Shown: piece after piece, positions 3,126-58,202 of the stretch
How the letters are laid out: each line of letters starts with the position of its first letter
Numbering within the stretch: position 1 is the first letter of the stretch
NCBI GenBank assembly: GCA_900766495.1
Contig: CAAFVM010000012.1
Span: 9,407-73,406 of the forward strand
Length of the DNA stretch: 64,000 bases
Direction of reading: 5' to 3'
DNA from: Clostridia bacterium
GTDB lineage: Bacteria > Bacillota > Clostridia > Christensenellales > Borkfalkiaceae
Made by a program: the position numbers and the translations under genes
Notes under the pieces: model-generated
Database searches by the model: none
The model's input: the letters and a program-made list of their open reading frames with translations, nothing else
What the model was told of the DNA's origin: nothing

Positions 3126-6100
3126 TTACTGCGCATTGTCGTCGCCGTTTTCGTTTGTAGTTTCGGCTTCTGCGTTTTCATCGGCAGGGGCTTCAACGTT
3201 TTCTGCGTTTTCTGCGTTTTCAACGGTTTCGGCAGCTTGTTCTTCGGTTTTGTTTTCCTCTTCGTTTGCTATATTGTTTTCAATATTGTCGTAATCGTAA
3301 GGTTTAACTTCTTCGGGTTGCGAATCCTTTTTGTCTTCAAGTTGAGCCTGGAGTTTTTCGCGGCTGTCGCGGTTGTAATATTCTTTGGTAGCTTGTTTGC
3401 CTGCTCTCGCTTTCTTAACAAGCATACGGATAAGAACCGCAACGAGCAGGAGAATAAGAACTACTGCGATAATAATCGAGGAAAGTTGCAGCGCCCAGCT
3501 GAAATCGGAAGAAGCGCCCGAGGACGAACTGCTCGAAGAAGAGGAGGAATCGCCGCTCGTGGTGTTGTCGATTTCGCGAACCGCGTCGATGGTTTCGTAA
3601 GAAGCTACAATCGCTTTGGTCTTGGTGTAAACGCTGAATACGGTGGTTTCTTTATATGTTCTGTAATTTACAACCTGCTTGCCGTCTTCGGTGGAAAGAA
3701 TTTTAGTGGGGAAGCGGGTGTAAGTTTTAACCGAAGCTTCGTTTACTACGTCGCCGTAATAGGTTTTAAGTTCTTCGTTTTCAAACGTTTCGGCGGTTAC
3801 CGAAGACTGTTCGAGGTTGTCGAACAATACCAAACCGCTTGCGGTGGCACTGTCGCGCGCGCCGTTCCAAAGTTCGGGTCGCAAAGTGATGGATTCGTTA
3901 CCCGTGGTAACAACGAACATAACGGTGAACCAACCGTCGTCTACAATATCGACCTTGTTGCAATCGGCTGCGGTTACGGTGGTAGCAAGTTTTTCGTTTA
4001 CCTTGTATTCGTTGGTTTCTTCATAGCTGCCGTCGGAGTTCTTAACGAAGTTTTTACCCGCTACGGTAAGAACGGGGAACCCGTCGAGCGCGTCGGATTT
4101 AGCAAGATATACGGTGGCTTTCGCATTGCCCACGACTTTAACTTTAACCTTAATAAGGGTAGTGGAATTAGCCGAGATTGTAATGTCGCTTCCGAAATAT
4201 CCGTAAGACGAACCGTTCGATTTAATTACGAGAGGTTGCAGATATTTGTTTTCGCCAAGCTTGCCAAGGCTTTCGATAGCCGTTTTTTCGTCGGCGGTAA
4301 GGAAAGTGTAAGCATCGGTCGAGGTGAAGTTCTTGGTATTGATAACGCCCGCGGTAACGCCTTCTTTAGAACCTACGGTAATGCCGTTGTCGGCGTCGTA
4401 GTAAATGCCCTTATAGCCGTTAACCGAAACAGCCGCGTCTTTTTCGATGAGGTTAGCGGAAGAAGCGTTGTAACCGAAATAGTAAGAATCGTCGCTTTCG
4501 TCGGTCTTGCCGCCATTTGGCATATCAGCGGTGAGGCTTACTTTAACTGCGTTCGAGGTGGTGCTTGCAATCGAGTAATCGTCCTCGGTAAGCTCGCAAA
4601 TTTCCGCATCGGTAACGAGGAAATAACCTACAGCCATCTTCCATTCGTCGTCGCTCTCGTCGCCGAAAGTGAACTTAACGCTGAATTTTCTGGTTTTATC
4701 GGAGTTAGAAACGGTGTTTGAAACATAAACGGTGTATTGAGTCCAGCCGTTGAACGTTTCAACCTTGTCGGTATTGAGGTTACTTGCAAGCGAACTGCTC
4801 TTGGGCGATTGCGCGTCGCCCTCGCCGAGGTCCTTAACCTCTATGGTCAAGCCGGGGCGGGAAGCCTTATCGAGGTGCGATTTAACCCAGAACGAAACTT
4901 TCTTATAGCTCTTATAAGGAACTTCGAAAGCTTGGGTTTCGCATTCGTATTTGCCCGCTTTGGTGAGTTTCGCATAGAAAGTGTCGCTTGTGAAATCGTC
5001 GCCGTAAGGAGCTTTAAGGTCGGAACCTATAACGGTTTTAATGTCGGAAGCGGAAGCTACGCCGGCAACGCCGAGGGTAGAATCGATAGCTCCGTCGTAA
5101 CCGCTAAACATATCGCCGAACGCTTCGTTGGTTCTGTAATGCGAGAGGGAATAAACAACCTCGTCGAATTTTTTACCGCTTTCGGCGTCGTTTGTTGCGG
5201 TGTAGTCGTTTAAAGCTACGGTTTTAAGGCCGTCGGCGGGAACTTTCGAATAGGTTTTATCGGAGTTCTGCTCGTAAAGATTGAACTTGTTTTCAACGGC
5301 GGTTGCGTTTACGCCGGCAATGTAATCGGCGTATTCGATTTTTTCGAAATTAACGTCGTCGAAAAACGCGTGGCCTTCAACGTATTCTTCGCGCAGTTCT
5401 CTGTTGCCGAAGCCCAAGCCGAGGGTTACCTTGAACGAGGATGTGGCAAAGTCGGACGAGCGGAGGTAAATAGTATATTTAACCCACTGGCTTACGCCGT
5501 TCTTTTCGGTGTTGATGCCTTTGATTACGAACGGGTCGCACGAGGAAGAAACGGTGTTCTGAATCGCGATGTAAGCGCCTACGCCGGTCTGGTTATAACG
5601 GAAACGCAGGTTTTTGGTTTTAACCCAAACCGAAAGACGGGCGTATTCGTTTTTACCAAGGCTCAACGACGAGGTCGACGTGAATTTCTGGGCGGTGCCG
5701 GTGAATTCATCGGGTGTGTCGTCTTTGGCGGTTATGTTCGAAATCATAAGAACTTTGCTGCCTTTCATGGGCAGCTTGTCCTCGTTGGAATTCTTCGTCT
5801 CTTTATCGAAAACGAAATATTCCGATTCCTCTTTAATGTTATAATCGTAAAGAGTGCCGGGGTTGTAATAGTTTTCGCCGTCTTTGGGAAGCTTGGCTTT
5901 TTTAGCGGCTTCTTCGTATTTGTCGGCTTCGGCTTTCGTGTCGATAATTCCCGAGTTGCCGTCGGAGCTTATAGCAGACGACGAATTTTTCGAATCCCTC
6001 GAAAGCGACCAGCTTATCGAAGAAGATACGGGGAACTTGGTATCGGTGGCAAAGGTCGAAAACTCGAAATCGCCGTTAGACACCAACTGGGTATCGGTGG

Positions 6101-6245
6101 GATTCACGACCGTTTCTTCCGCGCTCGAAGAGGAGGAAGAAGACTGATTGTTACACGCGGCGGAAAACGCCAGCGTGAAGCACAGCAGTACGGAGAGAAC
6201 GAAAACCGAAAAAGTTTTAAAGTTGAACTTGGTTGCTGTTTTCAT
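3126..6245 (-). CDS. Large cell-surface protein with three CBM4/9-like beta-sandwich modules, an N-terminal lipoprotein signal, a C-terminal TM helix and an acidic tail
   Basis: Signal peptide with lipobox LAFSAAC followed by a poly-Ser linker. The NGDFEFS start and the FFDDVNFEKIE and LVLFDNLEQS ends are typical of CBM4/9-type modules. Near the C-terminus there is a poly-Ser run, the TM segment IIIAVVLILLLVAVLIRMLV, and a KKARAGK stop-transfer. Confidence 0.6.
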   Translation of the reverse strand: MKTATKFNFKTFSVFVLSVLLCFTLAFSAACNNQSSSSSSSAEETVVNPTDTQLVSNGDFEFSTFATDTKFPVSSSISWSLSRDSKNSSSAISSDGNSGIIDTKAEADKYEEAAKKAKLPKDGENYYNPGTLYDYNIKEESEYFVFDKETKNSNEDKLPMKGSKVLMISNITAKDDTPDEFTGTAQKFTSTSSLSLGKNEYARLSVWVKTKNLRFRYNQTGVGAYIAIQNTVSSSCDPFVIKGINTEKNGVSQWVKYTIYLRSSDFATSSFKVTLGLGFGNRELREEYVEGHAFFDDVNFEKIEYADYIAGVNATAVENKFNLYEQNSDKTYSKVPADGLKTVALNDYTATNDAESGKKFDEVVYSLSHYRTNEAFGDMFSGYDGAIDSTLGVAGVASASDIKTVIGSDLKAPYGDDFTSDTFYAKLTKAGKYECETQAFEVPYKSYKKVSFWVKSHLDKASRPGLTIEVKDLGEGDAQSPKSSSLASNLNTDKVETFNGWTQYTVYVSNTVSNSDKTRKFSVKFTFGDESDDEWKMAVGYFLVTDAEICELTEDDYSIASTTSNAVKVSLTADMPNGGKTDESDDSYYFGYNASSANLIEKDAAVSVNGYKGIYYDADNGITVGSKEGVTAGVINTKNFTSTDAYTFLTADEKTAIESLGKLGENKYLQPLVIKSNGSSYGYFGSDITISANSTTLIKVKVKVVGNAKATVYLAKSDALDGFPVLTVAGKNFVKNSDGSYEETNEYKVNEKLATTVTAADCNKVDIVDDGWFTVMFVVTTGNESITLRPELWNGARDSATASGLVLFDNLEQSSVTAETFENEELKTYYGDVVNEASVKTYTRFPTKILSTEDGKQVVNYRTYKETTVFSVYTKTKAIVASYETIDAVREIDNTTSGDSSSSSSSSSSGASSDFSWALQLSSIIIAVVLILLLVAVLIRMLVKKARAGKQATKEYYNRDSREKLQAQLEDKKDSQPEEVKPYDYDNIENNIANEEENKTEEQAAETVENAENAENVEAPADENAEAETTNENGDDNAQ

Positions 6246-9280: not shown

Positions 9281-9393
9281 TTTTTGCAAAGTTGTTTTAA
9301 ACGAATATGCCGCCGCGGCTGAATATGCGACAGCTCGGCGCGCTTAAATAAAAAATTTAATATATGAATTAAAAAGGGTATTTGCTCATATAT

Positions 9394-10398
9394 ATGGATA
9401 TGAGAAAAATACTCTTTTTTTTCGCGCGGATTTTGTTTGTTGCGGTTTGCGTTTTCACTCTTTGCACGGCGCCGTTTTTTAATAAAAGCAAGGCAGAGAG
9501 CAAGGATTATTCGCTTGAAATATGGCAGGTGGACTGCTTCGAAGGCGGCACGGGGTCGCGGCGGGCGTATTTGCAAAGCGTAGCTAAAAAATTTTGCAAT
9601 ATAAAAAACGCCAAACTCGGCGCGGGAAATAACGGCTATGGCGGCAAAGTTACCGCGAGCGTGAAAAGCCACACGATTTATTCTGCAGAAGAAAGTTTTG
9701 CCGCGGGAATTTTTCCCGACGTGATTTCGTTCGGTGCGGGGTTGGAATTGCCTTACTCGCGGCTTGTAAAATTAGATTTCGACGGCGGCGCCGCTTGCGA
9801 GTACGGTAAGGAAAGTTATGCGGCGGTGTGGGCGCGCGGCGGCTATTGCCTTATAACGAAAAAGGGCGAAACGCAGATAAACAAACTTATAATAGGCGAG
9901 CAAAAATATAATTTGCCGCTCCTCGCGTGCAGATTGTCGAACTTAAAAATGCCCGAAACGGTGGAAGAATTGCCGTCGGATAAATGTTTTTACGAGTTCA
10001 ATTCAAACAAAAATTGCGGGTGGGTGGCAACGCAACGCGACCTGTATAGGGTTGACGGAAAAATAGAAGTAGACGTTCAGCCGCTTAACGGATATAACGA
10101 TTTATATCAGTGCGCCGCGGTTTTATCGTGCGAAAACGGCAACGAAAAGGCTGCTTGCGAATTTTTAAAATTTTTATGTTCGGGCGATTATTCCAATCCG
10201 TCGGTTATAGGAATGCTTTCGCCAAACGGTTTTGCAAAAGACGAAAGTGCCCCTATAAGTCGATTATCGGGGCAAAACGCAGATTATTGCCTTAACGTTT
10301 TTACCTCTCGCGCGGGGATTGAGAGGTTAAAAACGCAGTGCGCCGATTTTGATTTAAACGCGCAAAATATTAAAAACGCGCTAAAATATTTGAAATAA
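9394..10398 (+). CDS. Exported Cys-rich protein of unknown function, possibly a solute-binding-protein-like fold
   Basis: N-terminal hydrophobic signal or anchor ILFFFARILFVAVCVFTLC. I recognised no catalytic motif. The choice of start codon (9382, 9394 or 9400) is uncertain. Confidence 0.5.
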   Translation: MDMRKILFFFARILFVAVCVFTLCTAPFFNKSKAESKDYSLEIWQVDCFEGGTGSRRAYLQSVAKKFCNIKNAKLGAGNNGYGGKVTASVKSHTIYSAEESFAAGIFPDVISFGAGLELPYSRLVKLDFDGGAACEYGKESYAAVWARGGYCLITKKGETQINKLIIGEQKYNLPLLACRLSNLKMPETVEELPSDKCFYEFNSNKNCGWVATQRDLYRVDGKIEVDVQPLNGYNDLYQCAAVLSCENGNEKAACEFLKFLCSGDYSNPSVIGMLSPNGFAKDESAPISRLSGQNADYCLNVFTSRAGIERLKTQCADFDLNAQNIKNALKYLK

Positions 10399-16764: not shown

Positions 16765-17799
16765 TCAGGCAGGGTGAGCAACGGTTATCGTTGCGGTTTT
16801 TGCGAAGCGTTTAACCGAAGCGAACGCCTTTTCGCATTGCTCGCGGGTGCCGTAGCCCTCGCCCACGCACAGCAGGCGGTTAGCCGTTGAAAATATTTTA
16901 AATACGAAATTGCCGTTTTTATCTACGTTTATGGCGTAGTTGTCGTTTTCGATGTTCTTTTTAAGCGTTTCTATGCCGCTTTTACAACCGCTTAACGAAG
17001 AATAACTTTCGCCCGCAAGCATAAGTTCGCCGTTCGAAGCGTGCAATGTTGCGGTAAATCTGCCGTTTTCTTCGGTAATTATCCATTTGCCCGCATACTT
17101 AACCTTTTCTTCTTTTGTTGCGGGGGCGGCTTGCTCGGGTTCTTCCGTCTGGCTTTTTTCTGCGGCGGTTTCTTTATTTTCTTTTGCCTGCCGATTGTTG
17201 TTTTTTACCGCGGGGTTAGCTTTCTTCTCGGTTTTAATCGGCTTTATTTCTTCGGATTTTTGCTCGGATGAAATTTCGTTTTCGTCAGAATTTTCTACTG
17301 AATTTTCGGCATTTACCGAGGGCTCTTCTGCTGCAGCGTTTTGCGAAAGATCATCGTCTATGATAAATGCTTCCGAAATATTTTCGGCTGAAGTTTCCGA
17401 AAGTTCTTTTTCCGCAGGCTGTTCGTCTTCAATTTTTATTTCTTCGGTTTCTGTTGAATTATCCTCGTTTTCGGCAGGAGTTTCGCCCGATATTTCGGCA
17501 GCGTTTTCTTCGTTTTGCTGCTGCGTAGAGGCTTCTTTTTGCTTGCTTGATTCTTTTTGTTTAAGCTCGTCTAAAATAGAACCCTGGTGTAAAACGGGCT
17601 GTTTTAATTCGGCTTCGTTTGCGGCTTCTGTATTCGATTTTTCGTTTTTCTTGTCGCTTTTAGCGGGCTTTTGCTTTGCAAAACGCTTTTTTACGATAAT
17701 GTTTATCGCAATTATTACGACGATGGAAACAAGCAGAATCGCACCGAAAACTATAAGGTATCGGGTGTTGTTTTTAAGATATTGAATAATGTTATTCAT
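16765..17799 (-). CDS. Membrane-anchored protein with a long acidic low-complexity linker and tandem C-terminal DUF1508 (YegP-like) repeats
   Basis: N-terminal TM YLIVFGAILLVSIVVIIAINIIV followed by KKRFAKQK. About 190 aa of E/N/S/A-rich sequence follows. The C-terminus GRFTATLHASNGELMLAGESYSSLSGCKSGIETLKKN plus NGNFVFKIFSTANRLLCVGEGY...ASVKRF matches the two YegP repeats. Confidence 0.7.
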   Translation of the reverse strand: MNNIIQYLKNNTRYLIVFGAILLVSIVVIIAINIIVKKRFAKQKPAKSDKKNEKSNTEAANEAELKQPVLHQGSILDELKQKESSKQKEASTQQQNEENAAEISGETPAENEDNSTETEEIKIEDEQPAEKELSETSAENISEAFIIDDDLSQNAAAEEPSVNAENSVENSDENEISSEQKSEEIKPIKTEKKANPAVKNNNRQAKENKETAAEKSQTEEPEQAAPATKEEKVKYAGKWIITEENGRFTATLHASNGELMLAGESYSSLSGCKSGIETLKKNIENDNYAINVDKNGNFVFKIFSTANRLLCVGEGYGTREQCEKAFASVKRFAKTATITVAHPA

Positions 17800-20995: not shown

Positions 20996-21237
20996 CAATT
21001 AATTCGTCGCGGTTTGGCAACGCTCGGCAAACAAATTTAAAAATCGTTAAAATATTTGTAAAAATTTTACAAATAAGCGTGACAAAGCGATTTTTTTATG
21101 GTATATTATATTTGCGAGGCAATAGTGCTATTAAAAAATAATCGTTTTTGCTCATAATATAGCGACGAGTTAAGCGCCGGCTTTAAATTTTTTAGCAAAA
21201 TCGCGATAAGCGAGAGTCTTTGAGGGAGGAATTAACT

Positions 21238-21873
21238 TTGGCTGAAATAAAATATTTCGGGCATTCCTGTTTTTATATAAAAGGTAAAGAATTTTCGGTT
21301 GTTACCGACCCGTTTTCGGGAATAGGCTACGAAATGCCGAAAATTACCGCCGACTATTGCACGGTTTCGCACGGGCATTTCGACCATGCCGCTACCGATA
21401 AGGTAAACGCGCGCGTAATTAAAGGCGAAAATGCGGCGTTTACTGGCGAAAAATTGCCTTTTACCGCTATAAAAACTTATCACGACAACGAAAAGGGGGC
21501 TTTGCGCGGGGTAAATTACGCGTTTAAGTTTTGCCTTGACGGCGTTACTTTTTGTCACCTCGGCGATTTAGGCGAAAAATTCAGCGAGGAAGCCGCGAAG
21601 AAAATAGGAAACACCGACGTTTTGTTTATTCCCGTGGGCGGAAATTATACGGTTGACGGCGAGCAAGCCGAAAAGTTTGCGCGGGCGATTGATCCTTATA
21701 TAATTATCCCTATGCACTATAAAACGCCGCGTTCGAAAATTGATATATCCGCGGCGGACGATTTTTGTTCGCGCTTTAACGCCGTTATAAAAAAAGACGA
21801 CGAAATATCGATTGAAAAAGCCGACCTTAAAGAAAAACTTACGGTTTGGCTTTTAGACTCTTCGAACTTTTAA
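21238..21873 (+). CDS. MBL-fold metal-dependent hydrolase (UPF0173-like)
   Basis: KYFGHSCFYI...VVTDPF and VSHGHFDH. TTG at 21238 lies 7 nt after GAGGGAGGA and is preferred over the listed 21220 start. Confidence 0.7.
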   Translation: MAEIKYFGHSCFYIKGKEFSVVTDPFSGIGYEMPKITADYCTVSHGHFDHAATDKVNARVIKGENAAFTGEKLPFTAIKTYHDNEKGALRGVNYAFKFCLDGVTFCHLGDLGEKFSEEAAKKIGNTDVLFIPVGGNYTVDGEQAEKFARAIDPYIIIPMHYKTPRSKIDISAADDFCSRFNAVIKKDDEISIEKADLKEKLTVWLLDSSNF

Positions 21874-21992
21874 TATATAAGAATTTATAAAAACGACGTA
21901 TCATATTTTATAAAATATAAACTACATACAAATATAAAAATCGGTTCCGACCCGAAAGCCGAAAAAGTGAGGGCGGAAACCACGAGGTAGAA

Positions 21993-23411
21993 ATGGACGA
22001 AAAAGGATTGCCCGCCGTAAACGAGCTAAAAGGAATGACTATTCATCAACTGCGCGTATGGCTGAAAAAGCTTGGAGGAACGCCGAGCAACAAGCCGAGT
22101 GCCGTTCTGGTTGAAGAAATAACCGGAATTTTAAACGGTAAACAGCCCGTTAAAAAAAGCAACCGAGGCAGAAAACCTAAATACGTTTTGCAGGAAAGCG
22201 TTGTAAACGTCAACGAAATAAAAAGCGGTTACGCGCGTTTTAAAACCTGCGATAAGCTTCCCGCCGAGTTTTTGTCGGGCAGGAAAGCGCCGCTCAGTGC
22301 GCACGGAGTAACCGCTCCGTTCAGCGTGTCGGTAGCGTCCGACGACAAAGCAGTTCGTCGTCCGGTTATAGCCGACGGCGTACTGGTAGCCGAGTTCGAG
22401 CAGCCCTACATCGTAAACTACGACGAACGTTCGCGCAATCCCGTGTTTTATCTTAAAAACGGGATTGTTGAGTTTTATAAGCTGAAAACAGGCGATTATA
22501 TAACCGGTCATGCGGTTGAAACCTCCGGCAAATATATAACCACCGAGGTTGAAAAAATAAACGGAGTAAGCCGAGACGAATGGAAGCGCGGCGCTAATTT
22601 CGAAGACATTCCGTCGGTTTATCCGTGCGAAAGGTTTACGCTTTCGTCGGCGGTATGCTGCCGCGCGGTCGATTTGTTCAGCCCCATAGGAAAGGGCAGC
22701 CGCGTTCTTATAAAAGAAAGCGCGCGCACCAACACCGACGCATTGCTTTCGGCTGTTTGCTCCGCCGTTCAGAATCAGGCGCATATGGTGTTTATGCCCG
22801 TTTGCGCTATGCCCGAAGATATAGGCGAATATGCCGAAAAACTTAATAAAGCCGAGGTTGTGGCAAGCGATTTCGGAACCGACGGAGACGAGGCTCTTTC
22901 GCGTTTTTACGTTTATTACGAGCGTGCGAAACGACTTTTCGAACAGGGCGAAGACGTGGTTATGGTTATAAATTCGCTTCAAAAGCTTTACCCGCTTATA
23001 GTAAACGCCTATAACGAAGACAAAACGGCTAACGCCATGGCTGAGGTGAAAAGAATTCTTGCCTGCGCCAAAAATTCGGCGGAAAACGGCAGTTTTACCT
23101 TAATTGCTGTTATGGACGAAAGCGAATGCCCCGAACTTTGCGGCGAAATAGAAGAGCTGTTTAATTGCCGAATCGAACTTACGGCTGACGCGAAATATCG
23201 TTCGCTCGGCGGGGTGGACGTTTGCAAGAGTTTTTCTAAACGCATGGATAAAACCTGCGACGAAACCCGCTGCGAAGCCGTGGAAAAACTGCGCGACCTT
23301 ATTATAGAAAAAGACGAACCCGCTATTTTAGCCGAGATCTTTAAAATTGCTTCCGACAACGACGAAATCGCGCTTAACGCCGATAATTTTATTAAAGAGC
23401 TGAAAGCCTGA
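21993..23411 (+). CDS. Rho-like protein with degenerate ATPase motifs (Rho_N-like, OB-like RNA-binding and RecA-like domains)
   Basis: Collinear with Rho throughout. It has an N-terminal SAP-like helix pair and an OB region (GVLV...LKTGDYITG...INGV). RAVDLFSPIGKGSRVLI matches Rho R..DL.SPIG.GQR.LI. Also conserved are EVVASDF, ERAKRLFEQGEDVVMVINS and GSFTLIAV. The P-loop position reads ESARTNTD instead of PPKAGKT. Confidence 0.75.
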   Translation: MDEKGLPAVNELKGMTIHQLRVWLKKLGGTPSNKPSAVLVEEITGILNGKQPVKKSNRGRKPKYVLQESVVNVNEIKSGYARFKTCDKLPAEFLSGRKAPLSAHGVTAPFSVSVASDDKAVRRPVIADGVLVAEFEQPYIVNYDERSRNPVFYLKNGIVEFYKLKTGDYITGHAVETSGKYITTEVEKINGVSRDEWKRGANFEDIPSVYPCERFTLSSAVCCRAVDLFSPIGKGSRVLIKESARTNTDALLSAVCSAVQNQAHMVFMPVCAMPEDIGEYAEKLNKAEVVASDFGTDGDEALSRFYVYYERAKRLFEQGEDVVMVINSLQKLYPLIVNAYNEDKTANAMAEVKRILACAKNSAENGSFTLIAVMDESECPELCGEIEELFNCRIELTADAKYRSLGGVDVCKSFSKRMDKTCDETRCEAVEKLRDLIIEKDEPAILAEIFKIASDNDEIALNADNFIKELKA

Positions 23412-23542: not shown

Positions 23543-24154
23543 TTAAAAAAGCGATAAAAAATATTCGTATATTTCGTTGCCGCGGTTTTCCATTCTTTCG
23601 GGGTGAAACTGTACGGCAACGATTTTTTTATTTAAATTCTGTATGGCTTCTATTGTTCCGTCGGGCGCCCGCGCACAGATTTTCAGCCCCGCTCCCACAA
23701 TTTTTACCGCCTGTTTATGCGCCGAATTAACCGTAAATTTCTCGCCGAAAAGTTTATATGTAAAACCGCCTTGCGTGCTGAATATCGGGTGGTAAACGTC
23801 GGTTCCCGCGGCGTAGTGCATGTCGGCGCGCCTGATTTTTTGCTCTAACGTTCCGCGAAAATAAACGTTGAGCATCTGCATGCCGCGGCATACCCCCATA
23901 ATAGGCTTGTTTTGCTTTAAAAAAACGGCTATAAGGTATTGTTCCGCGCAGTCGCGTTTTAAATCTACGCCGGTGCAGAACCGTTCGGCGCTGTTATAAA
24001 AACATGGCGAAACGTCGCCGCCGCCCGGCAAAAGCAAGCCGTCGCACTCGCGCGAAAGTTCGGCGTTTTCGCTTATAACCGCCTGTGCGCCCGCGTCGTT
24101 CAACGCGCGCGCGTAATTATCGTAACCTTTGCCGTAAATAAAAATTTTTTTCAT
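23543..24154 (-). CDS. Class I glutamine amidotransferase, peptidase C26 (gamma-glutamyl-GABA hydrolase-like)
   Basis: Nucleophile elbow GVCRGMQMLN, and FHPE near the C-terminus. Confidence 0.75.
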   Translation of the reverse strand: MKKIFIYGKGYDNYARALNDAGAQAVISENAELSRECDGLLLPGGGDVSPCFYNSAERFCTGVDLKRDCAEQYLIAVFLKQNKPIMGVCRGMQMLNVYFRGTLEQKIRRADMHYAAGTDVYHPIFSTQGGFTYKLFGEKFTVNSAHKQAVKIVGAGLKICARAPDGTIEAIQNLNKKIVAVQFHPERMENRGNEIYEYFLSLF

Positions 24155-25158: not shown

Positions 25159-25596
25159 TCAAATATAATCTTTCAATTTTTCTTCGCTGTTTTCTTCGAA
25201 CACGCGGAATTTTTTCAAAAGTTCCAACACCTCTTTATCTATAAGCGCGCCGCTTTCCGAAATATCGCGTATAAGTTCGGTAACGCCCATAACTGTGCCT
25301 TTCATAGTCATTTCGGCAATGTGCGAATCGGAATCGTCAACCATGGTTTTCATTTTTATAGAAGCCGCAACCATCGACTTTTTCATTCCGCCCACGTCGG
25401 TGAGTTCTATGCCTTTTTCGTGGGCGAGGGCGGCTGCTTCGGTTATGAGTTTTTCGTATCCGTCGCGTTCCGCAAGCAGTTCTTCTTTTAAACCTCCCTG
25501 TGCTTTGGGGATAACGTCGTCGAGCGATACGAGCGCCATTTGCGCGTTTTTGTAACAATTTTGCAATACCGTTTGGGTAATTTTTTGTGTTTCCAT
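25159..25596 (-). CDS. Hypothetical helical protein
   Basis: 145-aa ORF with coding-like composition and predicted helical character. No family recognised. Confidence 0.5.
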   Translation of the reverse strand: METQKITQTVLQNCYKNAQMALVSLDDVIPKAQGGLKEELLAERDGYEKLITEAAALAHEKGIELTDVGGMKKSMVAASIKMKTMVDDSDSHIAEMTMKGTVMGVTELIRDISESGALIDKEVLELLKKFRVFEENSEEKLKDYI

Positions 25597-38342: not shown

Positions 38343-38810
38343 TTGCCCGTGAAAACCAAAGATATGGAAATTTTAAAGCAAAAGCTTATAGAAATTGCCG
38401 AACCTATGGGAATAGAGGTTGTAGACGTAGAATTTAAGGTGAGTAAAAATCCGTCGCTTACGGTTTATATCGATACCGAAGACGGCGTAGACCTTGATAC
38501 CTGCGAAAAATATCACAACGCAATCGACCCTATGCTCGACGATTTCGATTTTACTTTGGGCGCGGCTTACACGCTTAACGTGTCCAGCCCGGGGCTCGAC
38601 CGTCCGCTTAAAACCGCGCGCGATTTCGATAAAGCGCTCGGACAGGACGTGGAAATTAAACTTTTCGCGCCCGAAAAAGGCAAAAAGTTTTTCGAGGGCG
38701 TTTTAACCGATTACGACGACAATACGTTTACCGTTCAAATCGGCGAAGAAACCAAAAAGTTCGATAAAAACAAGGTTGCCAAAGTCAACATAGCCGTAAA
38801 ATTCGACTGA
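38343..38810 (+). CDS. rimP: Ribosome maturation factor RimP
   Basis: Position before nusA. GIEVVDVEF and LNVSSPGLDRPLK motifs. The true start may be GTG 38349 or ATG 38364; AGGAG is at 38336-38340. Confidence 0.88.
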   Translation: MPVKTKDMEILKQKLIEIAEPMGIEVVDVEFKVSKNPSLTVYIDTEDGVDLDTCEKYHNAIDPMLDDFDFTLGAAYTLNVSSPGLDRPLKTARDFDKALGQDVEIKLFAPEKGKKFFEGVLTDYDDNTFTVQIGEETKKFDKNKVAKVNIAVKFD

Positions 38811-38898
38811 TAAGCGGTTCAAAACAAATAAAAAATATAAAATACGTAAAAATTAAGTAACAGTCTGCGGCGTTCGGCGCCGTACGGAGGGTGGTTAT

Positions 38899-40059
38899 AT
38901 GAATAAGGAATTCTTTCTGGCTCTTGAAGAGCTTGTATCCGCGAAAAATATGGATATGAATATGCTCGTCGAAACGCTCGAAAACGCGCTTGCTCTGGCG
39001 TATAAACGTCAGTACAGCATACAAGGCACGGTAAAAATCAAAATGAACCCCGAAAAGTTCAACGTTAAATTCTGCATGGTTAAAAACATTGTGGACGAAG
39101 TTACCGACCCCGATAACGAGATTTCGCTTGAAGAAGCCCGCACTTATAAAAAATCGTATAAAACCGGGGAAGTGTTCGAACAGGAATTTATTCCCAAGCA
39201 GTTCAGCCGTATAGCCGCGCAAACCGCCAAGCAGGTGGTTATGCAGAAGCTCCGCGAAGCCGAGCGCGACAACACAATCGCCGAATATGAAGATAAAGAA
39301 AACGAAATTCAGAACTGCGTGGTTCGCCGCATAGAAAACAAAAACGTTTACGTCGAAATAGGCGGCGGTCAGATTGAGGGCGTTATGCGCCCGCAGGACC
39401 AGGTTCCCGGCGAAGAATACACGATAGGGCAAATGCTTAAAGTGTTTGTAAAACGCGTATCCAGCGACGGCAGAAACGCGCAGATACTGGTTTCGCGAAG
39501 CGCGCCCGGTTTTGTAAGAAAGTTGTTCGAAAACGAAGTGCCCGAAATCAAACAAGGGCTTGTGGTTATTAAAGGCGTTGCCCGCGAAGCCGGACAAAGA
39601 ACCAAAATCGCCATCGCATCCGAAGATAAAAACCTCGACCCCGTGGGCGCTTGCGTAGGTCCCAAGGGCGCAAGGGTGAACGCCGTGGTTGCAGAACTCG
39701 GCGGTGAAAAAATAGATATAATCGCTTACAGCGACGACCCGCTGGAATACATTGCGAAAGCGCTTTCGCCCGCAAAGGTTCTTATGGTTACCGCGGTTGA
39801 GGGCGAAAAGGTAGCAAGGGTAATAGTTCCCGACGACAAGCTGTCGCTCGCGATAGGCAAAGACGGGCAGAACGCACGCCTCGCGGCAAGACTTACCGGT
39901 TGGAAAGTTGACGTGAAGAGCGAAAGCAAGGCTAAAGCCGAGTTTGGTTATAACCCCGAAATGCTCGAGGGCGGCGCCGCTACGGTTACTACCGAAGAAA
40001 ACGCCGAAGCCGCGGAAAATACAGAAACGGCGGCTCCCGCGGAAGAACCCGCAGAGTAA
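38899..40059 (+). CDS. nusA: Transcription termination/antitermination factor NusA
   Basis: N-terminal domain, S1 domain and two KH domains ([23 protein letters not shown]), followed by an acidic tail. Confidence 0.95.
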
Positions 40060-40114
40060 TTTTATCGAAAAGGCGTTTTAAGCGAAAGTTTTGCGCTTTA
40101 ATAATTAAAAGAAC

Positions 40115-40384
40115 ATGGAAAAATATCAACCCGTTCGCACCTGCGTTTGTTGCAGAGGTAAGTTTTTGAAAAAAGACTTATTGCGCGTGGTTCGGCTTGC
40201 CGACGGAAGTTTTATAGTTGACGAAAGCGGAAAGTCGGACGGGCGCGGAGCATACGTTTGCAAAAATGCCGAGTGCATAAACAAACTTAAAAAAACAAAA
40301 GCGCTCGACCGTGCGTTCAAAACCAAATTGCCGCCCGAGATTTACGCGCTTTCGGAGGACGCGGTTGCCCACGATAAGAAGTAA
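40115..40384 (+). CDS. ylxR: YlxR/RnpM family (DUF448) RNA-binding protein
   Basis: PVRTCVCCRGKF...GRGAYVC motif, located after nusA. Confidence 0.9.
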   Translation: MEKYQPVRTCVCCRGKFLKKDLLRVVRLADGSFIVDESGKSDGRGAYVCKNAECINKLKKTKALDRAFKTKLPPEIYALSEDAVAHDKK

Positions 40385-40694
40385 ATTCGAAACTTTTATA
40401 GGTTTCGCAATAAGAAAACGCGCGCTGATAACGGGGCTTAATTCGGTGGAATCGCTGAAAAGGGCATACCTTATATTAGTGTGCGAAAGCGCTTCGGAAA
40501 ACACTAAAAAACAAGCGCTCGATTTTGCCCGCAAATTTAATTGCGAGGCGGTTTTATGCAAAATACCGCTTGAAGATATTACGGGTAAGTTAAATTGCAA
40601 AATAGCGGCTGTAACCGATAAAAATCTTGCGGTTGCCGCTGTAAATAATTCAGACGAAAATTTTTCTGTTATTTCGGGAGGAAAAGTTCGCTAA
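40365..40694 (+). CDS. ylxQ: L7Ae/L30e-family RNA-binding protein YlxQ
   Basis: Conserved position between ylxR and infB. IRKRALITG and LILVCESASENTKK resemble YlxQ. There is no in-frame ATG, so a TTG start at 40365 is inferred and remains uncertain. Confidence 0.65.
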   Translation: MPTIRSKFETFIGFAIRKRALITGLNSVESLKRAYLILVCESASENTKKQALDFARKFNCEAVLCKIPLEDITGKLNCKIAAVTDKNLAVAAVNNSDENFSVISGGKVR

Positions 40695-40695
40695 A

Positions 40696-43662
40696 ATGGA
40701 AGAAAGACAGGACAATACCAAAAACATTAAATCGCTCGGTCAAATACTTAAAGACGGCAACCTCGATAAACTGCTCGATAAAATCAAGCAGGCGCAGGGA
40801 AAGGCGTCCTCTATTATGAAAAAGCTCGGCGAAAAGCAAGCCGAGTTCAAGGCGCGCGAGGCGGCTGAAGCTCAATCGGAGTTCGCCGAAGAAGCCGCAC
40901 ACGCGGTAGAGAACGTTTCGCCCGCAGCGGAGAAGAAAGCCGCCGCTTCGGTTAAAGCCGACGAAAGCGTTAAGTCCGAAATAACCGAAACCGAAAAGCA
41001 AACCGCGGCTGCGCCCGCAGGCGAAAAAGCCGAGGTTAAGGCGGGAAAAACCGAAAAATCGGAGAAAACCGAAACGGTTAAAGCCGATAGCTCCGTAAAA
41101 GCGGAGAACGCGGAAAAAACGGTAAAGGCAGAGAAAATCGAAAAATCCGAGGCGAAAGCGGAAGCGAAAGAACCGGTTAAAGCCGCCGAAAACAAAGAAA
41201 CCGAAAAGGCTGAAAGCGCGGATAAAAAGGCTGAAAAGGTTCAGGGCGAAACCGTTAAAAACGCGGGCGAAAAGAAAGAAGCCCCCTCAAAAACTGCTCC
41301 AGTAAAAGCCGAAAAACAAGAGGCTAAACCCGAAAAGCAGGAAATCAAAGCCGAGGCTGCTAAAACGGCGGAGGGTAAAGAAGCGAAAGAACCCGCCAAG
41401 GAAGCAGAAAAGCCCGCCGAACCGCCTAAAAAATCGATATTAAGCTTTATAGTTAAAAAAGCCGACCCGACAAAACCGCAACAACGCGAGTTTACCTCCG
41501 ACGGCAAGCGCATATTCAGAAATAACGACCGTAACGGTTCTCCCGACCGTAACGGAAATCGTCCGCCCAGAAACGGAGCGGCGGGGCAGAACGGGCAACA
41601 GCGCGCGCCTTACGGGCAAAGACCTTTCGGCGCAGGCGCGAGTTCGTCCTCGTTCGCTGGCGGAGCCGGCAGACCCGCGGGTCTTTCGCGCAAACCGCAG
41701 GAAATTTCTTTCGTTCCGCCCAAGGATAATAAACCCGTAAAGAAAAAAGCGGAAAAGAGTTACGACGACAAGCGCGTTCAAAGCAAAAAAGCGCATATCA
41801 AGGAGCTTACCATAGCCGATTTCGACGAAAACAAGACCGGTTACAGAAAGCTGCGCAAGCCCAAAACGCAGAAAAAGGAAGAACAATCCAACTTCATAAA
41901 AATAGAAAAAGCGGTTTTAACCAAAGAACTTACGCCTATCAAAGAGCTTTCGGAAAAGCTGGGCATTTCGGCGGTTGAAATCTGCAAACGCCTGTTCAAA
42001 GAGGGCATAACCAAAAACATAAACGATTCGGTCGATTACGATACCGCAGCTTTCATTGCCGCCGACCTCGGAATAGAAGTCGAGCTTAAAATGGAAAAGA
42101 GTGCGGAAGAACTTATGAACGAGGGCTTCAACGAAGAAAAAGACGACGAATCGGTTCTTGTAAAACGTCCGCCTATCGTAACCGTAATGGGACACGTAGA
42201 CCACGGCAAAACCTCGCTGCTCGACAGAATAAGAAGCGCGAACGTAGCCGACGGCGAAGCGGGCGGCATTACCCAGCATATCGGCGCGTATTCGGTGGAT
42301 TTGCACGGCAATAAAATTACGTTTATCGATACCCCGGGTCACGCGGCGTTCACCTCGATGCGCGCGCGCGGTGCGCAGGTTACCGATATTGCGGTTATAG
42401 TAGTAGCCGCAGACGACGGCATAATGCCGCAGACTATAGAGGCAATTAACCACGCGAAAGCCGCGGGCGTTTCCATAATAGTTGCGGCAAACAAAATAGA
42501 TAAACCGCACGTAGACCTCGACAGGCTGCGCCAACAACTTTCCGAGCAGGAATTGCTTGTTGAAGACTGGGGCGGCGACATAATGATGATTCCCGTTTCG
42601 GCTAAAACCGGCGCGGGCGTGGAAGATTTGCTCGAAGCTATTTTGACTGTTGCCGAAATGCGCGAACTTAAAGCCAACCCCAACCGCAAGGCGCGCGGTA
42701 CCGTTATAGAAGCCAAGCTCGACAAGGGCAAAGGTCCTATGGCTACGGTTCTCGTTCAGAACGGTACTCTCCGCACGGGAGACAACGTGGTTGCCGGCAC
42801 CGTGGTAGGCAGGGTAAGGGCTATGATAAACGACAAGGGCGCGAACGTGAAAGAAGCGGGTCCGTCGGTTGCCGTTTCCATTCTCGGTCTTGAAGAGGTT
42901 CCGAACGCTGGCGACGCGATTTTTGCGGTAGACGAAGAAAAACTTTCTAAACTGGTTGCCGAAGAGCGCAAGAACAAAGAGCGCGAAATTATGATTCGTC
43001 AGCAGTCGAAAGTTACGCTCGACGACTTGTTCTCGAAGATTTCCGACGGCGAACTCAAGAGCCTTAACCTTATTATAAAAGCGGACGTTCAGGGTTCTGC
43101 GGAAGCCGTAAGGCAGTCGCTTACCGAACTTTCGAACGACGAGGTAAAAGTAAACGTTCTGCACGCCGCGGTAGGCGCGATAAACGAAACCGACGTTATG
43201 CTTGCCGATTCGGCTAACGCCATAATCATCGGGTTCAACGTTCGTCCCGACGTAAAGGCTAAAACTTTGGCTGAACGCAGTCACGTAGACATTAAGCTTT
43301 ACAGAATTATTTACGAAGCCATCGACGACGTGAAGAAAGCTATGAAAGGTATGCTCGCGCCCAAGTTTACCGACGAATACACCGGTAAAGCCGAGGTACG
43401 TAACACCTTTAAAATTTCGGGCGTCGGCACAGTTGCCGGTTGCTATGTAACCGACGGAAAAATCGTTCGTTCGGCAAAACTGCGTATTTATCGCGACGAC
43501 GTAATGATTTGCGAAGGCAACGTTATGCAACTTAAACGCTTTAAAGACGAGGTTAAAGAAGTCGCGCAGGGGTATGAATGCGGTATTTCCATCGAGGGAT
43601 TTAACGACATTAAAGTTGGCGATTTCATCGAAAGCTATATAGTTGTTGAAAATAAAGACTGA
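40696..43662 (+). CDS. infB: Translation initiation factor IF-2
   Basis: G-domain [21 protein letters not shown] and NKID. About 400 aa of the N-terminal region is low-complexity K/A/E-rich. Confidence 0.97.
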
Positions 43663-43790
43663 CGGCGGCGTTTGCCTGCCGATAGCGAGCCGACCGCAGG
43701 CGCGCGGAACAGCAAATTGCGAGCGTGCGTTTGTGGCGGAAGCCGCCGATAGCCGCGCGAAAAGCGGTTATAAGGCGGATAAAATAAGCT

Positions 43791-43826
43791 AAAAAAGGCA
43801 AGTATTTATATTTGCCTTTTTGTTTT
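43791..43826 (+). terminator. Intrinsic terminator-like hairpin between infB and rbfA
   Basis: AAAAAGGCAA-(10 nt)-TTGCCTTTTT followed by GTTTT. Confidence 0.55.
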
Positions 43827-43867
43827 ATCGCTAAAAAATGCGATAGACGAGCGGCGGAGGAAAGAAA

Positions 43868-44263
43868 ATGAAAGAAAAAAGAGAAAAACGACTTAACAGC
43901 GAGTTTCAGAAACAAATATACGAACTTTTGGTAAACAAGGTTAAAAACAAAGACCCGCGCCTTACCGAAATGTTTACGGTTACCGGCGTTGACGTTACCA
44001 ACGACCTCGAACAGGCTAAAGTTTATATAAGCGTGTTCTCGGGCAGCGCCGAGGCGAAAAAACAAACTTTTGCCGCGATTAAAGACAGCGCGGGCTTTAT
44101 TCGTAAAGAAATATCGAAGAATATGCACATTCGCACCGTACCCGAATTTATATTTTTAGAGGACAGGCAAGCCGAATACGGCGATAAAATCGACCGTATT
44201 TTAAGCACCATAACCTATACGACCGAACCTGACGGGGCGGAGGGCGAAGATGAGAACTCTTGA
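43868..44263 (+). CDS. rbfA: Ribosome-binding factor A
   Basis: Conserved position. VTGVDVTNDLEQAKVYISV is the typical RbfA KH-like core. Confidence 0.9.
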   Translation: MKEKREKRLNSEFQKQIYELLVNKVKNKDPRLTEMFTVTGVDVTNDLEQAKVYISVFSGSAEAKKQTFAAIKDSAGFIRKEISKNMHIRTVPEFIFLEDRQAEYGDKIDRILSTITYTTEPDGAEGEDENS

Positions 44264-45218
44264 AGAAATAGCGGCTAAACTTTTAAGTTTTAAAAGCACG
44301 CTTATTTTCTGCCATACTCGACCCGACGGTGATACGCTGGGCAGTGCGGCGGCGCTTTGTTCGGGGCTTGAAAGCAAGGGCATAACCTGCGATATAGTGT
44401 GCGACGGGCTTGTTCCCGCTAAATACGACTACGAGCCGTTTTTTAAGCGGGTTTTACAGCCCTCGCAGGTTAAAAAAAGTTATGAATGCCACGTTGCGGT
44501 AGACGTAGCAGGGGTGAATTTGCTCGGGTACGCGCGCAATTTATTCGAAGCAAACAAGAATACCTTGTGCATAGACCATCACGTTTCAAACGAACGCTAT
44601 GCCCGCGATTATTACGTGCGCGAATGCGCTGCAACCTGCGTGCTTATAGCGAAACTGCTTGAAATCATGAGCGTTAAGTTCGATAAACTCGTTGCCGAAA
44701 CCGTGCTGCTGGGCATTGTTACCGATACGGGTAATTTTTCACATAGCAACGCCGACCGCGAAGCTCTTATAACTGCGGGCGAAATGGTCGGGTTCGGCGC
44801 GGATTTACATAAAATCAACTATTATATGTTCAAGAACCAGTCGAAAGCGCGCGCAAAACTGTTTTCGGATGTTATGGGCAAAATGCGTTTTTACGAAAAC
44901 GATAAAATCGCCGCTATAATAATTGATAAAAAGTCGCTTGAAGAAGCGGGCGCGGGCAGCGAAGTCACCGAGGGCTTTGTGGATTTTCCGCTTTCTATCG
45001 AGGGCGTGGAGGTCGCTCTTTCGGTTCTTGAAACAAAGCCGAACTTATATAAAATAAGTTTAAGAAGCAAGGGCAAGGCTAACGTGAACGCCATAGCTTC
45101 CGATTTCGGCGGCGGCGGGCATATTCTTGCAAGCGGCTGCGTGATAGCGGGACCTTTGGAAGAGGTTATGGAAAAACTGGTGCGCGCCGTAAAAGTGAAC
45201 TGTGATTTTCTTAACTGA
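44250..45218 (+). CDS. nrnA: DHH/DHHA1 family phosphoesterase (NrnA-like oligoribonuclease / pAp phosphatase)
   Basis: CHTRPDGDTLGSAAAL, IDHH and GGGGH motifs. Confidence 0.8.
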   Translation: MRTLEEIAAKLLSFKSTLIFCHTRPDGDTLGSAAALCSGLESKGITCDIVCDGLVPAKYDYEPFFKRVLQPSQVKKSYECHVAVDVAGVNLLGYARNLFEANKNTLCIDHHVSNERYARDYYVRECAATCVLIAKLLEIMSVKFDKLVAETVLLGIVTDTGNFSHSNADREALITAGEMVGFGADLHKINYYMFKNQSKARAKLFSDVMGKMRFYENDKIAAIIIDKKSLEEAGAGSEVTEGFVDFPLSIEGVEVALSVLETKPNLYKISLRSKGKANVNAIASDFGGGGHILASGCVIAGPLEEVMEKLVRAVKVNCDFLN

Positions 45219-45286
45219 TTATTCGGTTTCGTTTTGTAGAAAAGCGAAATATTGCGGGGTGCAGAATTTTTTTTCGGTAAAAAAAG

Positions 45287-46138
45287 ATGAACGGATTTTT
45301 AAATTTATATAAACCCAAGGGCGTGAGTTCTGCTCACCTTTTAAACAAAGTTAAAAAAATTATAAACTGCAAGTGCGGGCATATGGGAACGCTCGACCCG
45401 CTTGCCTGCGGCGTTCTTCCCGTGGGCGTGGGGCAAGCTTCCCGCTTGTTCGACAGAATAACCGCCGATAAACGTAAAAAGTACATAGCCGAATTTACTT
45501 TCGGGTTTGAAACCGATACTCTCGATTTAGAGGGAAAGCCCGTTTTTACGTCGGAAAAAATTCCGTCGAAAGATGAGATAATCGACCTATTGCCCCGCTT
45601 TTTAGGCGAAATAGCGCAGGTGCCGCCCGCGTTTTCGGCAAAGTGCGTGGACGGGAAAAAGAGTTATAAGCTTGCCCGAAAAGGCGTGGTAACTGAACTT
45701 CCTCCGAAGAACGTTATGATTTACGAATATAAATTTTTAGGCGGAGAAAACGGCGTTTACAGGTTTGAAATAGAGTGCGGGGGCGGCACTTATATGCGCG
45801 CGCTCGCAAGGGATTTAGGTCTTGCGGCAGGCAGTCGCGCAACTATGACGGCGCTTGAAAGAACCGCGTGCGGAATATTCACCAAAGAAAATTCTGTTAC
45901 GCTCGAACAGCTGGAACAAGCCGAAAATTTTTGCGACTTGCTTATAAAAAGCGAGGACGTTCTGCATTATCCGCGGCTTGATATAAACGCAGAACAGGGG
46001 CAAAAGCTTTTAAACGGCTTGCCCGGCGAATACGCGCTTGAAGACGGCGATTATAAGTTGTTTTGCGATGGCGAGTTCTGGGGCGTTGCGGTTATTAACG
46101 ACAAGCAAATAAAGGTAAAACCCTACGTTCGCGGTTGA
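45287..46138 (+). CDS. truB: tRNA pseudouridine(55) synthase
   Basis: GFLNLYKPKG, GHMGTLDPLACGVLPV (catalytic Asp) and GTYMRALARDLG. Confidence 0.95.
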   Translation: MNGFLNLYKPKGVSSAHLLNKVKKIINCKCGHMGTLDPLACGVLPVGVGQASRLFDRITADKRKKYIAEFTFGFETDTLDLEGKPVFTSEKIPSKDEIIDLLPRFLGEIAQVPPAFSAKCVDGKKSYKLARKGVVTELPPKNVMIYEYKFLGGENGVYRFEIECGGGTYMRALARDLGLAAGSRATMTALERTACGIFTKENSVTLEQLEQAENFCDLLIKSEDVLHYPRLDINAEQGQKLLNGLPGEYALEDGDYKLFCDGEFWGVAVINDKQIKVKPYVRG

Positions 46139-46176
46139 TTTTGCGCGTGGTGGGTTGCTAAAAATTAATCTTAATT

Positions 46177-47067
46177 ATGGTTGAATTAGAATACGGCGGC
46201 AAGCCGTTCGGGCAAAAAAACGTAATATGCCTCGGCGCGTTCGACAGCGTGCATAATGGGCATAAAAGCATTATAAAGCAGGCGAAAAGCGCAGCCGCAA
46301 GCAGTGGTTCGAAAACGTTGGTTTTTACGTTTGAAAACGGGCTCGGACTTGTTGAAAGCGGAAAAAAAACGCAGGTTTTTACCTATGCCGAACGGTTGCA
46401 AATTTTAGCCGAACTTGGCGTTTACGGTGTTATACGGGCACATTTTAACGAAAAATTCGCAAACACGAGTGCGGAAGACTTCATAAAAAAACTGTTCGAG
46501 CAATTCGCGCCGTCGTGCGTTTTTTGCGGGGAAGATTACCGTTACGGCAAAAACGCTTCGGGCGATATAACGTCGCTTAAAAAGGCGTGCGACGAACGCG
46601 GAGTTGAACTTGTAGTTTGCCCGTTCGTGAAAATAAACGGCGAAAAAATTTCAACAAGTAACGTAAAGCGCGCGCTCGAACGGGGCGACGTTAAGCTTGC
46701 AAGCGAATTTTTGGGCGAAGATTATTTTATTTGCGGCACGGTAGAAACCGGCAGAAAAGAGGGCAGAACCATAGGTTTTCCCACGGCGAACATAAGCCTG
46801 CCGCCCGAAAAATTCAAGCTTAAAGAGGGCGTTTACAAAACCTACGCCTATATAAACGGCAAGCGTTATTACGGCATAACAAATTGCGGCAAAGCGCCCA
46901 CTTTCGGCTTTGAAAAACTGAAAATCGAAACTTATTTCAAAGATTTTTCTGGCGATATTTACGGCGAAAATTTAAAAATTAATTTTATAGATTTTTTGCG
47001 CGAAGATAAAAAATTCGCAAGCGCGGAAGAACTTAAAGCGCAGCTTAAAAAAGATTTGCAAGCGTAA
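46177..47067 (+). CDS. ribF: Bifunctional riboflavin kinase / FMN adenylyltransferase
   Basis: GAFDSVHNGH near the N-terminus and GFPTANI in the kinase domain. Conserved position after truB. Confidence 0.92.
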   Translation: MVELEYGGKPFGQKNVICLGAFDSVHNGHKSIIKQAKSAAASSGSKTLVFTFENGLGLVESGKKTQVFTYAERLQILAELGVYGVIRAHFNEKFANTSAEDFIKKLFEQFAPSCVFCGEDYRYGKNASGDITSLKKACDERGVELVVCPFVKINGEKISTSNVKRALERGDVKLASEFLGEDYFICGTVETGRKEGRTIGFPTANISLPPEKFKLKEGVYKTYAYINGKRYYGITNCGKAPTFGFEKLKIETYFKDFSGDIYGENLKINFIDFLREDKKFASAEELKAQLKKDLQA

Positions 47068-58149: not shown

Positions 58150-58202
58150 ATGGCTATCGAACGGAAATCGACCACAAATACGAACGTTCAAAGGAAACTA
58201 TA

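Follow-up and report, generated by a model that had tools for sequence, protein, structure and literature searches.

Rho proteins and a divergent homologue in a Clostridia contig

Rho is the textbook ring-shaped RNA motor. Its mechanism involves the Walker motifs, a catalytic glutamate, the arginine valve and arginine finger, and the Q- and R-loops (PMC11347177, PMC12360218), and a survey of 2730 genomes found the ATPase domain highly conserved in every functional Rho, second copies included (PMC11347177). Here, we analysed a 64-kb stretch of contig CAAFVM010000012.1 (hereafter, the window), which carries a Rho-like open reading frame (ORF) at positions 21993..23411 of the + strand (all the parts of this gene given below lie on the same strand). 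The ORF starts with ATG and encodes 472 amino acids followed by a stop codon. On the basis of the ORF list, homology, and predicted fold, we describe it as a motor-dead Rho orthologue: the ATP-driven machinery of Rho is lost in a protein that keeps the Rho fold and the place of the rho gene in the genome.

Among the described members of the family, the short second-copy Rho (Group B or Type 4; NCBIfam model NF041509, paralog_Rho2) is likewise divergent and far from the textbook protein. It has no N-terminal domain, coexists with a complete Rho, and retains its catalytic residues and those of the bicyclomycin pocket (Moreira et al. 2024, PMC11347177). In contrast, the protein of the window has kept its N-terminus, lacks the catalytic residues, and is encoded where the primary rho gene is expected; its score against NF041509 was 97.3 bits, below the cut-off of 628. 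Mycobacterium tuberculosis Rho (PDB 7oqh), which is among the structural matches of the protein, is a natural Rho with weak motor activity. It is described as an ATP-dependent motor that retains all the motifs, which are absent in the protein studied here.

The F1 alpha and V1 B subunits bind nucleotide via an intact P-loop and work in obligate hetero-hexamers. These non-catalytic subunits belong to the same superfamily and exemplify how a subunit that does not hydrolyse can be a structural component of a ring, and weak matches to F1 alpha and to type III secretion system (T3SS) ATPases were obtained; the likeness is an analogy only, the similarity being many orders below that to Rho. An assignment as a T3SS or F1 ATPase was rejected, with E-values of 1e-6 or worse against the much stronger Rho match. 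For an ATPase-dead Rho, we found no description in the searchable literature, which included recent comprehensive Rho papers but did not extend to a phyletic survey of 2013 or to the supplementary material of the 2024 one; the original prediction, made from the DNA sequence, had known of no described pseudo-ATPase Rho, and this search agrees with it.

The similarity to Rho is significant in all the profile and structure searches that carry the assignment. The NCBIfam Rho equivalog model NF006886 matched residues 152-450 at E 4.4e-31 with 108.1 bits, below its 315-bit cut-off, and TIGR00767 matched at E 3.8e-27 with 95.2 bits, below its cut-off of 509. Pfam ATP-synt_ab (21.8 bits) and Rho_RNA_bind (14.6 bits) were also found, below their gathering scores of 29.5 and 27, respectively. 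Rho chains of the PDB matched the ORF product at E 2e-21 to 5e-15. PADLOC and PHROGs returned no matches for the ORF.

The AlphaFold2 monomer model, computed on a 36-sequence alignment, reached a predicted local distance difference test score (pLDDT) of 87.4 and a predicted template modelling score of 0.79, with disorder confined to two linkers (residues 60-77 and 114-119). When it was compared to the PDB with Foldseek, the top 50 matches were all Rho chains, with target-normalised template modelling scores of 0.71-0.84 and a root-mean-square deviation of ~3-4 Å over ~370 columns. The domain order and the predicted fold are those of canonical Rho (E. coli, PDB 1pv4/3ice/5jji). The claim that the product is a full-length Rho homologue, collinear from end to end, is therefore borne out by the profile and PDB E-values and by the predicted fold, and the doubt whether the similarity to Rho is significant at all was settled by the same searches (E 4.4e-31 and E 2e-21).

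The ORF product is thus a very divergent but significant Rho homologue. As judged from the curated models and the catalytic motifs, it lies inside the evolutionary Rho family and outside the functional one. Its closest intact relatives are the Rho proteins P0008-P0014 (P0012 is MBQ7408598.1, the annotated Rho of a Clostridia metagenome-assembled genome, MAG). Two of these intact sisters (P0010 and P0012) are encoded at the same locus and have in common with it the N-terminal helix pair, the RGRKPK motif, the OB motifs LKTGD/KING, the core motifs SPIGKGxR, ERAKRL, and GSxT, and the C-terminal NDE. Compared with canonical Rho, the protein has lost the ATPase residues, both loops of the secondary RNA site, and most of the primary-site residues.

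ATPase and RNA-site elements

To number these losses we used E. coli Rho, in a copy identical to PDB 1pv4_A across all 419 residues. The Walker A motif of E. coli (A178-T185, APPKAGKT) aligns without gaps to ESARTNTD (residues 242-249, 22716..22739), with K181 replaced by R, K184 by T, and T185 by D. An alternative P-loop of the form [AG]xxxxGK[ST] was found neither elsewhere in the protein nor in any other frame. The segment I209-P213 (IDERP), which holds the catalytic Glu and the Arg valve, reads VCAMP (22800..22814), so that D210 is changed to C, E211 to A, and R212 to M; in other members of the clade of orthologues described below, DER reads GFT, GVA, or GAM. The Walker B segment I262-I267 (ILLDSI) reads MVINSL (22962..22979), D265 aligning to N327, and the members of the clade have N, D, R, H, or Y there.

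The segment of the Arg finger, equivalent to E. coli R362-D372, lies at 23226..23258. The finger itself, R366 (the R of SGTRKEE in E. coli Rho), aligns to K416, and the position is not conserved in the clade, being K, R, T, A, or S. The adenine-stacking F355 aligns to L405. Still present are E275 (E. coli E214), a hydrophobic residue at F355, and the GKG motif ahead of the P-loop. The loss of the P-loop, the change of LLDS to VINS at Walker B, and the destruction of the ATPase chemistry had all been proposed from the sequence, and the alignment confirms each of them, Walker A, the Walker B Asp, the catalytic Glu, and the Arg valve being replaced. The losses of E211, R212, the Q-loop, the R-loop, R366 (here K416), and RNP1 had gone unmentioned.

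The picture is mixed for the RNA-binding parts. The OB-fold domain (residues 124-190, 22362..22562) is predicted with strands at 124-132, 139-141, 152-154, 169-177, and 180-189. At the RNP1 position (22395..22415), the E. coli segment D60-R66 (DGFGFLR) reads FEQPYIV: F62 is replaced by Q, F64 by Y, and R66 by V, the sole survivor being F64, as Y. The replacement P-Y-x-x-N-Y-D at this position does not vary within the clade. D78, the cytosine-contacting residue, has become V, and Y80 is Y here and K, L, or F in other clade members. E108 and Y110 have no reliable alignment, even in the intact sister Rho proteins. Most of the primary-site residues that read YC dinucleotides are thus lost.

Both loops of the secondary site are affected as well. 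At the Q-loop (22998..23045), the E. coli segment P279-G288 (PASGKVLTGG, with K283 and T286) corresponds to NAY-NEDKT, 7 residues shorter, and the loop is shortened by 7-9 residues in every clade member. At the R-loop (23109..23138), the E. coli segment TALIDTGSKMDEV corresponds to VMDESECPEL, with a 4-residue deletion; TGSKMD is replaced and K326 aligns to E381. The original prediction had seen both the fold and the RNA-binding parts as conserved. For the RNA-binding parts this is not supported: the OB fold alone is kept, and RNP1, D78, the Q-loop, and K326 of the R-loop are lost.

All the residue classes used for ATP hydrolysis and RNA translocation are lost, and from the established Rho mechanism it follows that a protein with this predicted sequence could not work as an ATP-driven translocase or terminator.

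The dead clade, its selection, and its locus

The protein is not an isolated case. Several independent assemblies contain the identical sequence, whose cluster at 90% identity comprises 36 members. The same losses, both deletions included, are seen in the orthologues P0002-P0007, P0328, and P0181, which are 87%, 63%, and 41-44% identical to it. A sequencing error, named by the original prediction as what would refute it, is thus ruled out by independent assemblies and by orthologues that share the losses. In all 9 representatives of this clade (hereafter, the dead clade), diverged to ~41% identity, the reading frame is uninterrupted, and new clade-specific invariant residues have appeared: PYxxNYD, C223, N391-C392, and GGVD. 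As a side observation, the protein has 13 Cys (2.8%), among which C223 and C392 are those invariant in the clade; the cysteine content is 1.3-2.8% across the clade vs 0.4-1.0% in the intact sisters.

An exhaustive profile search against 1.84 billion representatives retrieved only 3 clade clusters at 50% identity (8 at 90% identity). These were well separated from everything else: clade members scored at least 690 bits, and the next match was an intact Rho at 295 bits. A scan of GTDB species genomes with the clade alignment relied on a pattern, E[RH]AKRL[VFL]EQ, that canonical Rho fits too; no clade member was among the matches listed, and SNRGRKPK was found in none of L013-L092.

In the neighbour-joining tree, the dead clade is monophyletic with 100% bootstrap, nested in Clostridia-type Rho on a long stem, and ~2x as far from canonical Rho as the intact sisters are. 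The deep nodes of this tree are weak, and the grouping of degenerate lineages may partly reflect long-branch attraction. The motor of the clade was lost once, on its long stem.

We then estimated the selection acting on the gene. For a single pair of close relatives, the gene of the window and its 87%-identical counterpart in L001, the Nei-Gojobori estimate of the ratio of nonsynonymous to synonymous substitution rates (dN/dS) was 0.097 at a synonymous divergence (dS) of 0.74. The ten flanking genes of the same pair gave dN/dS 0.03-0.15, and each region of the Rho-like protein 0.05-0.14. Purifying selection on the dead Rho is as strong as on the neighbouring housekeeping genes. The idea of a "functionally decayed" Rho, in the sense of ongoing decay, did not hold against a dN/dS of 0.097. 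As for the conservation of the degenerate motifs themselves, which the original prediction had proposed to check, the losses and deletions are shared throughout the clade, also by three sublineages that have diverged to 41-44% identity, and the replacement residues vary within it.

The divergence is unevenly spread along the protein. The mean pairwise identity, dead vs intact sisters, was 65 vs 61% for the N-terminus, 59 vs 59% for the OB domain, and 49 vs 79% for the RecA-like domain, which is under relaxed constraint. Comparison of flanking genes gave identities of 46-62% for dead against intact genomes and 43-64% for intact against intact, and the NusA of the window shares 77% identity with that of the genome encoding the intact P0010. 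Rho identity, instead, falls from 54% between intact proteins to 30-34% between dead and intact ones. These values suggest that the protein changed rapidly along the stem and, once remodelled, came under purifying selection again.

The best-conserved region, both in the dead clade and in the other decaying lineages described below, is the N-terminal module. It comprises a Rho_N-like helix-extended-helix (residues 9-47, 22017..22133), for which AlphaFold2 predicts helices at 9-13, 17-26, and 36-47; Pfam Rho_N (PF07498) is undetected, and the segment is 45% identical to, and collinear with, the N-terminus of the intact sister Rho proteins. The basic motif SNRGRKPK (residues 56-63, 22158..22181) follows, invariant in 7/7 clade sequences and present in intact Clostridia-type Rho too; the disordered linker 60-77 after it has pLDDT below 50. 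A linker motif, GRKAP..A.GV.AP, was considered as a clade-specific gain and rejected, as a recognisable version exists in the intact sisters. The RecA-like domain (residues 221-420, 22653..23252) keeps its fold, with pLDDT mostly above 90 and Foldseek matches to Rho, and has lost the catalytic and RNA-translocation elements. The C-terminal helical bundle (residues 424-471, 23262..23405) has predicted helices at 424-440, 444-452, 456-461, and 463-471; N456 of its N-D-E motif is invariant in the clade and near-invariant across Rho.

Other Rho-like proteins show comparable changes. In the profile search, Walker A, the catalytic Glu, the Q-loop, or the R-loop was partly or fully degenerate in many other metagenomic Rho-like representatives, for example P0182-P0185, P0193, P0204, P0205, P0209, P0210, P0225, P0227, and P0230. 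Four of these belong to the same Clostridia group, three partly decayed (P0182-P0184) and one fully (P0185). The latter (NCBI MAG GCA_045589135.1, L095:7006-8307) lies at the same MBL-rho-GATase locus, and its motor loss is probably independent of that of the dead clade, since its Q-loop is of full length and its genome is equidistant from dead and intact genomes. P0182-P0185 and P0204/P0230 are, like the dead clade, Rho-derived proteins with motor motifs partly or wholly lost; they are separate lineages, and P0182-P0184, unlike the dead clade, retain parts of the motifs. No description of P0182-P0185 or P0204/P0230 was found in the literature searched. In P0182-P0185, the similarity of the N-terminal 63 residues to intact Rho is close to that found among intact Rho proteins, and the RecA domain diverges. 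It seems, at least for this Clostridia group, that the Rho motor has been lost repeatedly in genes that were themselves retained.

The genomic position ties the dead and intact genes together. The gene order is MurB-PHP-WhiA-M42-NadE-DUF1508-HI0933-FAD-MBL-[rho]-GATase-PNP (the last being methylthioadenosine/S-adenosylhomocysteine, MTA/SAH, nucleosidase-like), and, within the reach of each contig, it is common to dead (the window, L001, L006, L010, and L008) and intact (L003 and L011) genomes. Since the gene stands at the exact locus of intact rho in related genomes, it is by position the rho orthologue of its lineage, which is one of uncultured, gut-associated Clostridia, and the earlier wording "paralogue" does not apply. 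No second Rho-like ORF is present within the 64-kb window.

Directly upstream of rho, intact or dead, every related genome examined, namely L001, L003, L006, L008, L010, L011, and L095, has an MBL-fold metal-dependent hydrolase (21220..21873, + strand, in the window). This constant adjacency suggests a conserved operon. The hydrolase (Lactamase_B_3, with a weak PRK00685 match) is 12-15 nt from rho in L003, L011, and L095, and 27-131 nt in the dead clade. In the window, the 120-nt gap before the Rho-like ORF is AT-rich, and no strong sigma-70 consensus was called in it; a Shine-Dalgarno sequence, read directly, is GAGG at 21984-21987 (GAGGT, 21984..21988, + strand), 5 nt before the ATG. Downstream, the convergent class-I glutamine amidotransferase (GATase; Peptidase_C26-like, 23543..24154, - strand) serves as synteny anchor. 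A functional link to the neighbours was considered and none is evident, the MBL hydrolase, FAD enzymes, GATase, and MTA/SAH nucleosidase being metabolic housekeeping genes.

Further features of the window can be noted. A protein with C-terminal DUF1508 repeats (16765-17799, - strand) has a conserved position between NadE and the HI0933-like gene, and a size of 116-429 aa among relatives (L003:5706-6482, L011:6106-6456, and L095:127-1416). The window includes the genes of ribosomal proteins L21 and L27 and the rimP-nusA-infB-truB-ribF operon (38343-47067). An ORF of 1038 aa (3126-6245, - strand), overlapped by long opposite-strand ORFs, has no Pfam or NCBIfam match. Pfam gave no match for the ORFs 9382-10398 (+), 25159-25596 (-), 58188-59303 (-), and 59901-61328 (+), and NCBIfam none for the first two; the 145-aa ORF at 25159-25596 is 92% identical in a sister species, with dN/dS 0.10. 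No Rfam family reached its gathering score across the 64 kb.

Role of the protein and consequences

Taken together, a Rho-derived pseudoenzyme with an ATP-independent role is in our view the likely explanation of the gene. The protein would act as a pseudoenzyme in which the N-terminal helix pair and basic motif, with the remodelled OB domain, bind nucleic acid or the transcription machinery without ATP, and in which the dead RecA-like domain has been retained because it supports folding and oligomerisation. The original prediction had offered three roles, namely an ATP-independent RNA-binding regulator, a subunit that modulates or poisons a ring of canonical Rho, and a sole, functionally decayed Rho; among these, the ATP-independent regulator is the best reading. 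It is also most probably the sole Rho-derived protein of the genome.

Some of our own observations weigh against this explanation. Binding to nucleic acid or to the transcription machinery, the most likely role, is read from the pattern of regional conservation, and RNA binding by the OB domain is uncertain because the primary RNA site is largely dismantled. Many Rho proteins of Clostridia have the N-terminal helix pair and RGRKPK, which therefore do not point to a specific new function. The low dN/dS comes from two close relatives; more distant pairs, for which dS approaches saturation, give 0.25. Moreover, the search for a second Rho-like ORF covered the window, and a canonical rho could exist elsewhere in the genome.

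A further proposal, which we consider possible but rather unlikely, is that an ancestral ATP- and translocation-independent function of Rho alone suffices to retain the gene in this Clostridia group. Candidate functions would be stand-by binding to RNA polymerase, NusA, or NusG, a nucleic-acid chaperone activity, or a role in condensates. Its seat would be the N-terminal helix pair with the basic motif, held out from the scaffold of the ring. If this were true, the dead clade would be a natural separation-of-function mutant of Rho, and this group would have dropped the motor repeatedly, with P0182-P0184 as partial cases next to the dead clade and P0185.

The alternatives to a pseudoenzyme with its own ATP-independent role differ in how they account for the same data. 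If a canonical rho were present elsewhere, the protein could enter mixed hexamers and tune termination as a modulator or poison subunit, in the manner of the F1/V1 non-catalytic subunits or of a dominant-negative subunit. The RecA-like fold and the core and interface-proximal motifs (RAxDLFSPIGKGxR, ERAKRLxEQG, and GSFTLI) are kept, as such a subunit would need, the analysed DNA is 64 kb of the genome, and it has been proposed that species carrying two rho genes form hetero-hexamers (PMC11347177). We nevertheless hold this improbable: the gene is at the ancestral rho locus and not at a new one, the window has no second Rho-like ORF, and the nearest intact Rho proteins among 5.8 billion proteins are all at the same locus in other genomes. 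Second rho genes are also uncommon outside Actinomycetota and the Planctomycetes-Verrucomicrobia-Chlamydiae (PVC) group (PMC11347177).

A different possibility is that Rho became dispensable and that the ORF is a functionless relic on its way out. Rho is dispensable in Bacillota, and functional Rho is absent from 30% of them (PMC11347177); coherently with a relic, the evolution of the RecA domain outpaces that in the intact sisters, and several related lineages show partial decay. This account is very improbable in the face of a dN/dS of 0.097 at dS 0.74, which is like that of the housekeeping neighbours and low in every region, of a frame intact in 9/9 clade representatives despite ~41% identity, of the new invariant residues (PYxxNYD, C223, N391-C392, and GGVD), and of a confident fold prediction. 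Finally, the idea that the protein is still a nucleoside triphosphatase or translocase through a non-canonical nucleotide site, to which K416 at the Arg finger and the retained E275, hydrophobic residue at F355, and GKG before the P-loop could lend some credit, is scarcely tenable, as no P-loop exists anywhere, the P-loop Lys/Thr, catalytic Glu, Arg valve, and Walker B Asp are replaced by residues that vary within the clade, and the RNA-contacting Q-loop is physically deleted.

For genome annotation, the pseudoenzyme reading has a practical consequence: genomes such as this one are scored "Rho present" by loose homology or "Rho absent" by hidden Markov model cut-offs, and both are wrong. For the biology of the family, it would mean that the Rho scaffold can be kept for something besides ATP-driven termination. 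The dead clade could offer a natural variant for testing what Rho does without ATP, for instance whether it binds RNA polymerase in a stand-by mode, which is debated, or whether its N-terminal region binds RNA or DNA.

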